The translations under genes and the position numbers were made by a program. This document shows, in pieces, positions 559 to 59,965 of a DNA stretch of 64,000 nucleotides. The notes beneath the pieces are model-generated. The model was not told the origin of the DNA. It did no database searches and saw only the letters and a list, made by a program, of their open reading frames with translations. The first letter of the stretch is position 1. Every line of letters begins with the position of its first letter. Source of the stretch: Escherichia coli (lineage in GTDB: Bacteria > Pseudomonadota > Gammaproteobacteria > Enterobacterales > Enterobacteriaceae); the NCBI RefSeq assembly GCF_044324875.1, contig NZ_CP172185.1; one strand, given 5' to 3'.

Positions 559-610
559 CCGAATTTCGATTAACGCTCAGTCTCTGACTGAGAAAACTGG
601 AAGCATGCTA

Positions 611-5434: not shown

Positions 5435-5733
5435 TCCCCTTACAACATGGACTGATCCTCGCGGCAATCTTATTCGTTCTTGGCTTAACCGGTCTGGTTA
5501 TCCGTCGCAATCTGCTGTTTATGCTGATTGGTCTGGAAATCATGATTAACGCCTCCGCGCTGGCCTTTGTGGTCGCCGGAAGCTACTGGGGCCAGACCGA
5601 CGGTCAGGTGATGTACATTCTCGCCATCAGCCTCGCGGCGGCAGAAGCGAGTATCGGCCTAGCGCTGCTGCTGCAACTTCACCGTCGTCGCCAGAACCTG
5701 AACATTGATTCAGTAAGTGAGATGCGCGGATGA
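5431..5733 (+). CDS. nuoK: NADH:quinone oxidoreductase subunit K
   Basis: 100-aa three-helix membrane protein; start overlaps the nuoJ stop. Confidence 0.92.
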
Positions 5734-7571
5734 ACATGCTTGCCTTAACCATTATTTTGCCATTGATTGGCTTCGTCCTGCTGGCGTTCTCCCGTGGGCG
5801 CTGGTCTGAAAACGTCTCGGCGATCGTCGGCGTTGGCTCTGTGGGCCTGGCGGCGCTGGTAACTGCCTTTATCGGCGTTGACTTCTTCGCTAACGGTGAG
5901 CAGGCATACAGCCAGCCGCTGTGGACGTGGATGTCGGTAGGCGACTTTAACATCGGTTTTAACCTGGTGCTGGACGGCCTGTCGCTGACCATGCTCTCGG
6001 TGGTCACTGGTGTGGGTTTCCTTATTCACATGTACGCCTCCTGGTATATGCGCGGTGAAGAGGGCTACTCTCGCTTCTTCGCTTACACCAACCTGTTCAT
6101 CGCCAGCATGGTAGTTCTGGTGCTTGCCGACAACCTGCTGCTGATGTACCTCGGCTGGGAAGGCGTGGGCCTGTGCTCCTATCTGCTGATCGGTTTCTAT
6201 TACACCGATCCGAAGAATGGTGCAGCGGCAATGAAAGCGTTCGTCGTGACCCGTGTGGGTGACGTGTTCCTCGCTTTCGCGCTGTTCATTCTTTACAACG
6301 AACTGGGCACCCTGAACTTCCGCGAAATGGTGGAACTGGCACCAGCGCACTTTGCTGACGGCAATAACATGCTGATGTGGGCGACGCTGATGCTGCTGGG
6401 CGGTGCGGTCGGTAAATCTGCGCAGTTGCCGTTGCAGACATGGCTTGCCGACGCGATGGCAGGCCCGACGCCTGTCTCCGCGCTGATCCACGCCGCAACG
6501 ATGGTAACCGCGGGTGTCTACCTGATCGCCCGTACCCACGGCCTGTTCCTGATGACGCCGGAAGTTCTGCATCTGGTGGGCATTGTTGGGGCGGTTACGT
6601 TGCTGCTGGCCGGTTTTGCCGCGCTGGTACAGACCGACATCAAACGTGTTCTCGCTTACTCTACCATGAGCCAGATTGGCTACATGTTCCTCGCGCTTGG
6701 CGTACAGGCATGGGATGCGGCGATTTTCCACTTGATGACTCACGCGTTCTTTAAAGCGCTGCTGTTCCTGGCATCCGGTTCCGTCATTCTGGCCTGCCAT
6801 CACGAACAGAACATCTTCAAGATGGGCGGTCTGCGTAAATCTATTCCGCTGGTTTATCTCTGCTTCCTGGTGGGCGGTGCAGCACTGTCGGCACTGCCGC
6901 TGGTCACTGCGGGCTTCTTCAGTAAGGATGAGATCCTCGCGGGGGCGATGGCGAATGGTCATATCAATCTGATGGTGGCTGGTCTGGTCGGTGCGTTTAT
7001 GACCTCGCTCTACACCTTCCGTATGATTTTCATCGTCTTCCACGGAAAAGAACAAATTCACGCTCACGCCGTGAAAGGGATCACTCACAGCCTGCCGCTG
7101 ATTGTGCTGCTGATCCTTTCCACCTTCGTTGGCGCACTGATTGTACCGCCGCTGCAGGGCGTGCTTCCGCAAACGACGGAACTGGCGCACGGCAGCATGT
7201 TGACCCTGGAAATTACCTCTGGCGTGGTCGCGGTGGTCGGCATTCTGCTGGCAGCCTGGCTGTGGCTGGGTAAACGTACTCTGGTGACCTCCATCGCCAA
7301 CAGTGCGCCGGGCCGTCTGCTGGGCACCTGGTGGTACAACGCCTGGGGCTTTGACTGGCTGTACGACAAAGTGTTCGTCAAGCCGTTCCTGGGTATTGCC
7401 TGGTTGCTGAAACGCGATCCGCTGAACTCAATGATGAACATCCCGGCTGTCCTTTCCCGCTTTGCAGGTAAAGGTCTGCTGTTAAGCGAGAACGGTTATC
7501 TGCGCTGGTATGTGGCATCCATGAGCATCGGTGCGGTCGTGGTGCTGGCACTGTTGATGGTACTGCGTTGA
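5730..7571 (+). CDS. nuoL: NADH:quinone oxidoreductase subunit L (antiporter-like)
   Basis: 613-aa polytopic membrane protein; start overlaps the nuoK stop. Confidence 0.93.
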
Positions 7572-7577
7572 GTTAAG

Positions 7578-7665
7578 GATTGTGGGCTTGCCCCTGGGCA
7601 TATAAGAACGTAGGTCGGATAAGCCGCCTTCGCGGCGCATCCGACACTACAACCACAATCCGAAG
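7578..7665. repeat. REP/BIME-like nested palindrome in the nuoL-nuoM spacer
   Basis: Inner inverted repeat gtcggata...tatccgac/catccgac around a GC-rich loop (gccgccttcgcggcg), flanked by outer inverted repeat ggattgtgg...ccacaatcc. Confidence 0.55.
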
Positions 7666-7736
7666 AGAATTTTCTGTCGTGAGAATTCGTTGAAAATCCG
7701 GTCCTGACGGGACTTTTACAAGGAATAAAGATCGCC

Positions 7737-9266
7737 ATGTTACTACCCTGGCTAATATTAATTCCCTTTATCGGCGGCTTCCTGTGCTGGCAGACCGAAC
7801 GCTTTGGCGTCAAGGTGCCGCGCTGGATCGCGCTGATCACCATGGGATTGACGCTGGCGCTGTCGCTGCAACTGTGGTTGCAGGGCGGTTATTCACTGAC
7901 GCAATCCGCCGGAATTCCGCAGTGGCAGTCTGAATTCGACATGCCGTGGATCCCGCGTTTTGGTATCTCTATCCATCTCGCCATTGACGGGCTATCGCTG
8001 CTGATGGTCGTGCTGACTGGTCTGCTCGGTGTGCTGGCGGTACTCTGTTCGTGGAAAGAGATCGAAAAATATCAGGGCTTCTTCCACCTCAACCTGATGT
8101 GGATCCTGGGCGGCGTTATCGGCGTGTTCCTTGCCATCGACATGTTCCTGTTCTTCTTCTTCTGGGAAATGATGCTGGTGCCGATGTACTTCCTGATCGC
8201 ACTGTGGGGGCATAAAGCCTCTGACGGTAAAACGCGTATCACGGCGGCAACCAAGTTCTTCATTTACACCCAGGCGAGCGGTCTGGTGATGTTGATCGCC
8301 ATCCTGGCGCTGGTTTTTGTTCACTACAATGCGACCGGCGTCTGGACCTTCAACTATGAAGAGCTGTTGAATACGCCAATGTCCAGTGGTGTGGAATATC
8401 TGTTGATGCTGGGCTTCTTCATCGCATTTGCGGTGAAAATGCCGGTGGTTCCGCTGCATGGCTGGCTGCCGGATGCGCACTCACAGGCTCCAACCGCCGG
8501 TTCCGTGGACCTCGCGGGGATCTTGCTGAAAACCGCCGCTTACGGTCTGCTGCGTTTCTCCCTACCGCTGTTCCCGAACGCGTCGGCAGAGTTCGCGCCA
8601 ATCGCCATGTGGCTGGGTGTTATCGGCATCTTCTACGGTGCGTGGATGGCCTTCGCCCAGACCGATATCAAACGTCTGATCGCCTACACCTCGGTTTCCC
8701 ACATGGGCTTCGTGCTGATTGCTATCTACACTGGCAGCCAGTTGGCCTACCAGGGCGCGGTAATCCAGATGATTGCGCACGGCTTGTCAGCGGCGGGTCT
8801 GTTTATTCTCTGCGGTCAGCTTTATGAACGTATCCATACCCGCGACATGCGCATGATGGGCGGTCTGTGGAGCAAGATGAAATGGCTGCCAGCACTGTCG
8901 CTGTTCTTTGCGGTGGCAACGCTTGGGATGCCTGGCACCGGTAACTTCGTCGGCGAATTTATGATTCTGTTCGGCAGCTTCCAGGTTGTCCCGGTGATTA
9001 CCGTTATCTCTACCTTTGGGCTGGTCTTTGCCTCTGTTTATTCGCTGGCGATGTTACATCGCGCTTACTTCGGTAAAGCGAAAAGCCAGATTGCCAGCCA
9101 GGAACTGCCAGGGATGTCGCTGCGTGAGCTGTTTATGATCCTGTTGCTGGTGGTGCTGCTGGTACTGCTGGGCTTCTATCCGCAGCCGATTCTGGATACC
9201 TCGCACTCCGCGATTGGAAATATCCAGCAGTGGTTTGTTAATTCCGTTACTACTACAAGGCCGTAA
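7737..9266 (+). CDS. nuoM: NADH:quinone oxidoreductase subunit M (antiporter-like)
   Basis: 509-aa polytopic membrane protein in operon position. Confidence 0.93.
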   Translation: MLLPWLILIPFIGGFLCWQTERFGVKVPRWIALITMGLTLALSLQLWLQGGYSLTQSAGIPQWQSEFDMPWIPRFGISIHLAIDGLSLLMVVLTGLLGVLAVLCSWKEIEKYQGFFHLNLMWILGGVIGVFLAIDMFLFFFFWEMMLVPMYFLIALWGHKASDGKTRITAATKFFIYTQASGLVMLIAILALVFVHYNATGVWTFNYEELLNTPMSSGVEYLLMLGFFIAFAVKMPVVPLHGWLPDAHSQAPTAGSVDLAGILLKTAAYGLLRFSLPLFPNASAEFAPIAMWLGVIGIFYGAWMAFAQTDIKRLIAYTSVSHMGFVLIAIYTGSQLAYQGAVIQMIAHGLSAAGLFILCGQLYERIHTRDMRMMGGLWSKMKWLPALSLFFAVATLGMPGTGNFVGEFMILFGSFQVVPVITVISTFGLVFASVYSLAMLHRAYFGKAKSQIASQELPGMSLRELFMILLLVVLLVLLGFYPQPILDTSHSAIGNIQQWFVNSVTTTRP

Positions 9267-52981: not shown

Positions 52982-53100
52982 AATGCCGGATAAGGCATTT
53001 TACGCCGCATCCTGTGCCTGATGCGACGCTGGCGCGTCATATCAGGCCTACAAACCGAGCCGTATGCCGGATAAGGCGTTCACGCCGCATCCGGCATCTC
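52982..53100. repeat. REP/BIME cluster in the nrdA-nrdB spacer
   Basis: Two or more REP-type palindromes (gccggataaggc...gccgcatcc, gcctgatgcgacgctggcgcgtcatatcaggcctac). Confidence 0.75.
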
Positions 53101-59844: not shown

Positions 59845-59965
59845 TCTGACCGGCACTATTGCCGGATGCGGCGTAAACGCCTTATCTGGCCTACGGGAGC
59901 ATTTGTAGGCCTGATAAGACGCGGCAAGCGTCGCATCAGGCATTGGCACGGTTGCCGGATGAATC
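59845..59965. repeat. REP/BIME cluster between yfaL and ubiG
   Basis: REP-type palindromes (gccggatgcggcgtaaacgccttatctggcctac, gcctgataagacgcggcaagcgtcgcatcaggc). Confidence 0.75.

Follow-up and report, generated by a model that had tools for sequence, protein, structure and literature searches.

A REP element enclosed by a locus-specific helix in the nuoL-nuoM spacer of Escherichia coli

The nested palindrome between nuoL and nuoM

The spacer between nuoL and nuoM of Escherichia coli carries a nested palindrome, in which one hairpin is enclosed by a second, perfect inverted repeat, and the whole sits inside the nuoA-N transcription unit. Is it a device that acts on the nuo mRNA, or a palindromic repeat of a known kind? 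Intercistronic REP elements are textbook features of E. coli. We analyzed the locus within a 64-kb stretch of E. coli DNA (the window). Our preferred reading, which we regard as probable, is that the palindrome is a REP, the one survivor of a pair that has decayed, within a locus-specific helix, and that it is no regulatory device.

A 221-bp query over the site found matches in 5,420 of the 5,426 complete E. coli genomes. In the window the nuoL-nuoM spacer measures 165 bp; its features and those of its flanks are as follows.

5730..7571, + strand: nuoL CDS, with its TGA stop at 7569-7571 (ORF list and RefSeq annotation of a 100% identical stretch)
7577..7585, + strand: 5' arm of the outer helix, GGATTGTGG, starting 5 nt past the nuoL stop codon
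7589..7600, + strand: stub hairpin of 12 nt with a 4-bp stem, UGCC/GGCA, in the fold; probable remnant of a left REP
7610..7650, + strand: REP element, GTAGG head first; the core, 7610-7645, is GTAGGTCGGATAAGCCGCCTTCGCGGCGCATCCGAC, and the stem reaches 7650 in the fold
7653..7661, + strand: 3' arm of the outer helix, CCACAATCC, the same arm as in Citrobacter R56
7667..7688, + strand: small AU-rich hairpin, GAAUUUUC/GAGAAUUC, part of the conserved spacer backbone and outside the nested palindrome
7700..7714, + strand: conserved hairpin, GGUCCU-GAC-GGGACU, upstream of the nuoM ribosome-binding site
7720-7724, + strand: nuoM Shine-Dalgarno sequence, AAGGA (sequence and fold)
7737-9266, + strand: nuoM CDS (ORF list and RefSeq annotation of a 100% identical stretch)

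Positions 7662-7736, toward the 3' end of the spacer, form a backbone that is conserved from genus to genus; the spacers of 76 bp consist of this backbone alone. Its AU-rich hairpin is nearly invariant across genera, and three pairs of the 7700-7714 hairpin are changed on both sides in the cross-genus comparison. The nuoM ribosome-binding site lies about 60 nt beyond the palindrome and does not pair with it in the predicted fold.

The two outer arms, GGATTGTGG and CCACAATCC, are 9 nt each and 100% complementary, with 67 nt between them. A 96-nt segment folds into a predicted three-layer structure (-45.7 kcal/mol, z = -5.6, 48% of the ensemble) with the outer helix present in both the minimum-energy and the centroid structures, and neither helix nor structure changes when the segment is folded in 325 nt of context. 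The palindrome would thus be transcribed in the nuoA-N mRNA and fold there into a stable three-layer structure 5 nt past the nuoL stop. An earlier note on this DNA had placed at 7578-7665 a REP-like inner hairpin bracketed by a perfect 9-bp inverted repeat about 60 bp apart, and had suggested a large stem-loop within the polycistronic nuo transcript. RNA folding, run here, predicts just such a stem-loop, and the inner hairpin has a REP core (7610-7645) that folds as a hairpin. The repeat is perfect and at the site named, but its gap is the longer one just given, and the span starts one position off and ends 4 nt beyond the 3' arm.

The inner hairpin is a REP, probably one half of a decayed pair

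REPs are imperfect palindromes of about 35-40 nt with a GTAG(G) head and a CTAC tail, dispersed in many extragenic copies, and the inner hairpin conforms on both counts. Its arms of 14 nt are 86% complementary; an inner 5-bp helix (7623-7627/7632-7636) forms in the fold, and GUAG/CUAC pairing extends the stem to 7650. The window has six occurrences of the head motif GTAGGYCGGATAAG, allowing up to two mismatches, where 0.39 would be expected, and the other copies lie in repeat clusters of the REP/BIME type. These other window elements, at 51527-51563, ~52985-53097 and ~59862-59943, are typical single REPs or BIMEs. The K-12 annotation table (NC_000913.3; our loci L211 and L086) carries no repeat features whatever over 50 kb, so the missing REP label there is uninformative. 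An Rfam search of the spacer gave no family at threshold (the REP-derived naRNA4 scored 23 bits against 59.5, on both strands), and the alternative spacers described below likewise gave none at threshold.

A full BIME or REPIN, with two inverted REPs and a short linker, is not what the window holds at this site: the left partner is the 12-nt stub. Orthologous loci do hold it. In Citrobacter sp. R56, Citrobacter sp. NCU1 and a metagenomic locus, L140 (the three being L013, L007 and L140 of our set), two full inverted REPs stand between the same arms, and the region of about 100 nt is predicted to form one long hairpin (-65.5 kcal/mol in Citrobacter R56). When E. coli is aligned to Citrobacter R56, a full REP stands where E. 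coli has the 7589-7600 stub, and on this alignment the stub appears homologous to the left REP, which in E. coli would have suffered an internal deletion. On this view a REP pair (BIME/REPIN) would have decayed at the tip of a long imperfect palindrome, the outermost 9 bp of which are peculiar to the nuoL-nuoM spacer.

The outermost helix lies outside the repeated unit of REPs and is unique to this spacer. Within the window the 9-mer GGATTGTGG is present at the two arms only, and this flank is absent from the other REP loci there. Across 4,699 E. coli genomes, a query consisting of the non-REP flanks alone gave a single location in each, and in every case the REP interrupted the match. The idea that the arms belong to a mobile repeat is ruled out by these two observations. 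Thus the E. coli locus resembles known REP (PU), BIME and REPIN elements in its head motif, in belonging to a family dispersed in many copies within the window, and in the full two-REP inverted arrangement of its Citrobacter orthologs; it differs in having one intact REP and in the 9-bp helix outside the repeated unit. We found no description of a closing helix at nuoL-nuoM in the literature, and as a locus-specific feature it is a minor detail.

Spacer alleles within E. coli

The 165-bp allele of the window, with its perfect outer repeat, was found at 99% identity or more in 323 genomes, about 6% of the 5,426 complete E. coli. The majority allele, K-12 included, is 163 bp long, with two A's fewer and a right arm reading CCCCAGTCC. 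Intermediate right arms occur as well, CCCCAATCC in strain HYM1 and CCCCGGTCC in another genome (L005). The imperfect alleles keep nine pairs by a register shift, in which GGAUUG(U)GGG pairs with CCCCAGUCC, the helix containing a bulge and one G·U pair; the 163-bp-type allele has a predicted fold of -42.4 kcal/mol against the -45.7 kcal/mol of the window allele. Citrobacter R56 has the right arm of the window and its 7-nt linker, so that the perfect form looks ancestral or retained, not newly made. We also considered a template-switch origin of the perfect right arm and ruled it out: the 11-mer AACCACAATCC is common to Citrobacter R56, and copying of the left arm would predict another base than the one seen.

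A third spacer is unrelated to these. In 725 of the 5,426 complete E. coli genomes (13%), O157:H7 and E. coli C among them, nuoL and nuoM are separated by this spacer, of 230 bp. The element is therefore dispensable, being missing from these strains, from Salmonella enterica subsp. arizonae and from many other enterobacteria. From the start of the 230-bp spacer through nucleotide 60 of nuoM, the sequence matches S. arizonae (L006) at 100% identity, and in the carriers that we compared, E. coli NZRM4165 and B25FEP (L001/L002), the adjacent nuoL is only about 85% identical to S. arizonae; to judge by these identities, the spacer looks like a very short patch of inter-genus recombination. One single genome, E. 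coli O157:H7 TR01 (L087, 2001-2230), has a chimeric spacer whose ends (left arm and beginning of the REP included) are K-12-like and whose interior is Salmonella-like, with junctions at short shared sequences; this could be a real recombination product or an assembly artefact.

ERIC-like repeats at the same spacer

Other palindromic repeats have also come to lie between nuoL and nuoM. An element of about 150 nt (positions 690-850 of L001) fills the spacer in S. arizonae, several Citrobacter, Raoultella, Kosakonia, Pantoea and Erwinia (equivalents in L009, L011, L027, L030, L033, L052 and other loci), and in such lineages an ERIC-like repeat of 150 nt occupies the position of the 7700-7714 hairpin. 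The element is multi-copy in E. coli, with a median of 4 places per genome, and is distantly ERIC-like (17-18 mismatches over the 44 positions of the ERIC core; no Rfam match). In Serratia the elements at this spacer are true ERICs: the core query, as we take it from the ERIC primers, gave 6-9 mismatches in three of four Serratia loci and 13 in the fourth. The likeness of the nuoL-nuoM locus to ERIC/IRU elements is thus one of address, since they or their relatives occupy the spacer in Serratia and in S. arizonae, 13% of E. coli, Pantoea and Erwinia; the window spacer itself differs in having no ERIC similarity (23 of 44 mismatches, against a background mean of 24.2 and minimum of 20). The spacer would be a permissive site at which small palindromic repeats land and turn over.

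Published K-12 transcript data

If the palindrome acted on the transcript, its effects might appear in K-12 data, all of which concern the 163-bp type of allele, different from that of the window, under laboratory conditions. In the window sequence itself, no promoter-like or terminator-like site was found in 7300-7900; in particular there is no intrinsic terminator, i.e. a GC-rich stem with a direct U tract. For K-12, a transcript running the full length of nuoA-N is predicted from direct RNA sequencing (PMC11481537). Since no such site was found, we rule out a terminator or an internal promoter. Over most of the 14 kb of nuo, the mRNA has a lifetime of about 4 min (PMC4332155). The Term-seq ends tabulated in the supplement of PMC7815308 include none in the spacer (K-12 2393042-2393204); the same table places 3' ends inside nuoL, nuoN and nuoG (K-12 2394829, 2391429 and 2399938, minus strand). 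The first of these lies 217 nt into nuoL, at about window position 5947, and none of the three is near the palindrome. The study of differential decay in PMC5927463 covered 390 operons, nuo among them, and nuo is absent from its supplementary tables of differential decay and of RNase E sites, although absence from thresholded lists of this kind is weak evidence. Our literature search on nuoL or nuoM with REP, BIME, RNase III or RNase E found nothing specific.

A close precedent for a function is the intercistronic REP stabiliser of malE-malF (Newbury et al. 1987, as summarised in PMC5927463 and PMC6061677). The nuoL-nuoM palindrome is likewise a stable REP hairpin between cistrons, just past the upstream stop; in the K-12 sources named above, however, nuo has neither a stability difference between upstream and downstream segments nor a 3' end at the hairpin, so on data from the 163-bp allele it does not behave as an mRNA stabiliser of the malE-malF class. 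REPs resist exonucleases (summarised in PMC6061677), and at most the palindrome would play this generic part, as a barrier to 3'-to-5' exonucleases that protects decay intermediates. It would be no dedicated processing site, terminator or setter of distal-subunit ratios, and its presence is probably close to neutral.

The suggestion of the earlier note that the stem-loop influences mRNA processing or the stoichiometry of distal subunits thus finds no support in the uniform lifetime, the 3' ends or the RNase E tables, which, for strains of the 163-bp allele, speak to some extent against it. The note would have given the idea up if the structure were absent from closely related nuo operons and no processing site were detected, and this has come about by half: 13% of E. 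coli lack the structure, and no processing site has been recorded. The comparison with other enterobacterial nuo operons that it proposed gave a divided answer, the helix being present in Citrobacter, Klebsiella and Superficieibacter but absent in S. arizonae and many others.

Conservation of the closing helix and alternative readings

Taken alone, the outer repeat is unremarkable, because the window holds 29 perfect 9-bp inverted repeats with loops of up to 100 nt, against 20.6±5.1 in dinucleotide shuffles. It stands above chance because the same closing helix is predicted at orthologous spacers in four other genera. We extracted the spacers of 80 Enterobacterales nuoM loci, which range from 24 to 289 bp; many have no such hairpin, other genera have short spacers of 24-76 bp, and in several the 76-bp core stands without a palindrome. 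The loci that do have complementary arms are:

Citrobacter sp. R56: GGATTGCGG / CCACAATCC
Klebsiella oxytoca and K. michiganensis: GGATTGTGGG / CCCGCAATCC
Superficieibacter electus: GACTGTGGGA / TCCCACAGTC
Citrobacter sp. NCU1: TGATTGT / ACAATCA
L140, a metagenomic Citrobacter-like contig: GGATTGTGG / CCGCAATCC

In Citrobacter, Klebsiella and Superficieibacter the closing helix encloses different REP sequences, each species-specific. The outer helix is part of the minimum-energy structure of all eight sequences folded, and the closing stem of all nine sequences re-folded, from five genera. In an alignment of the arms only, 88.9% of cells are paired, against 29-52% with slid partners. Two pairs of the helix are compensatory (U-A to C-G via a U·G intermediate, and G-C to U-A), and the alignment scores 0.191 for covariation, where shuffles score 0.138 and 18 of 500 reach the observed value. 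In these alignments the conservation of complementarity is clear and the covariation only modest, coming from about six independent lineages. Species sampling for covariation is small because a metagenome scan with a 16-mer backbone pattern, which was too short, gave L140 as the only nuo spacer among 120 fetched loci.

Such conservation could mean that selection maintains the outer helix as an intercistronic RNA structure which predates the enclosed REPs, clamps the REP into a large, three-way fold and modulates decay, processing or translation where nuoL and nuoM meet. Constraint at the RNA level is hinted at by several comparisons: (i) the arms stay complementary over five genera around divergent interiors; (ii) two compensatory pairs have arisen; (iii) the K-12 allele retains its nine pairs through the register shift; (iv) where the two strands differ, G·U pairs make the helix more stable in the sense than in the antisense strand in five of six cases, a strand preference that is itself weak. 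A terminating ribosome would open at most the first few pairs of a helix starting 5 nt past the stop, and the helix would begin just beyond the footprint of such a ribosome. The nuo operon itself supplies a precedent in the nuoG RNA motif (Rfam RF01748), a conserved hairpin between cistrons at window 561-603 on the + strand (50.3 bits against a gathering threshold of 33) and the sole above-threshold Rfam match in the 64-kb window. Like that motif, the palindrome is an intercistronic hairpin of the nuo operon; it differs in position and sequence, and it is far more variable between strains and genera, with no Rfam family above threshold. Against selection speak the absence of the element from a share of E. 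coli and from many genera, the K-12 sources above with no signature of decay, 3' ends or cleavage at the site, the small number of lineages behind a statistically modest covariation, and the standing of the perfect form as a minority allele. On balance we consider a selected helix doubtful, and retain the reading of a REP in a locus-specific helix.

A related possibility, which we judge unlikely, is that the outer helix is an ancestral nuo hairpin, maintained by selection, into which species-specific REP pairs have repeatedly been inserted and turned over; the 7700-7714 hairpin, with its ERIC-like repeats, would be a second host of this kind. The closing stem would then have been kept by compensatory evolution, and it would follow that small palindromic repeats nest preferentially in existing RNA or DNA hairpins and that closing stems carry function.

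REPs and BIMEs have been reported with roles at the DNA level or in Rho attenuation, and Espeli et al. 2001, cited in PMC6061677, is said to describe such roles. The palindrome might therefore serve as a gyrase, IHF or HU site, as a substrate of the REP-associated transposase, as a cruciform with an effect on local topology, or in Rho attenuation as in some BIMEs, and the window allele is a symmetric palindrome, both strands of which fold equally well. We hold this to be very unlikely: E. coli retains a single intact REP, the linker, read by eye, has no recognisable IHF-like motif, and the full-length nuoA-N transcript and the uniform lifetime speak against strong attenuation. Least probable of all is that the outer repeat is a coincidence beside a REP, of no significance of its own; the abundance of such repeats in the window and the imperfect version in most E. 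coli strains fit it, but it is already disfavoured because the arms are conserved across genera, with complementary arms at the orthologous site in Citrobacter, Klebsiella, Superficieibacter and the metagenomic contig and with pairing far above that of the slid controls.

Meaning of the nuoL-nuoM palindrome

The feature is an element of a kind already known, a REP/BIME remnant, in the best-catalogued of bacterial genomes. As it stands the palindrome matters little, being an ordinary intercistronic REP with no regulatory signature. The spacer is of some modest value: E. coli has at least three natural cassettes here, the 165-bp and 163-bp REP alleles and the unrelated 230-bp spacer, which together make a ready-made natural experiment on whether an intercistronic REP affects the expression of downstream complex I subunits. 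The closing helix, kept around divergent REPs, gives a small hint of how palindromic repeats may nest in hairpins or grow from them.
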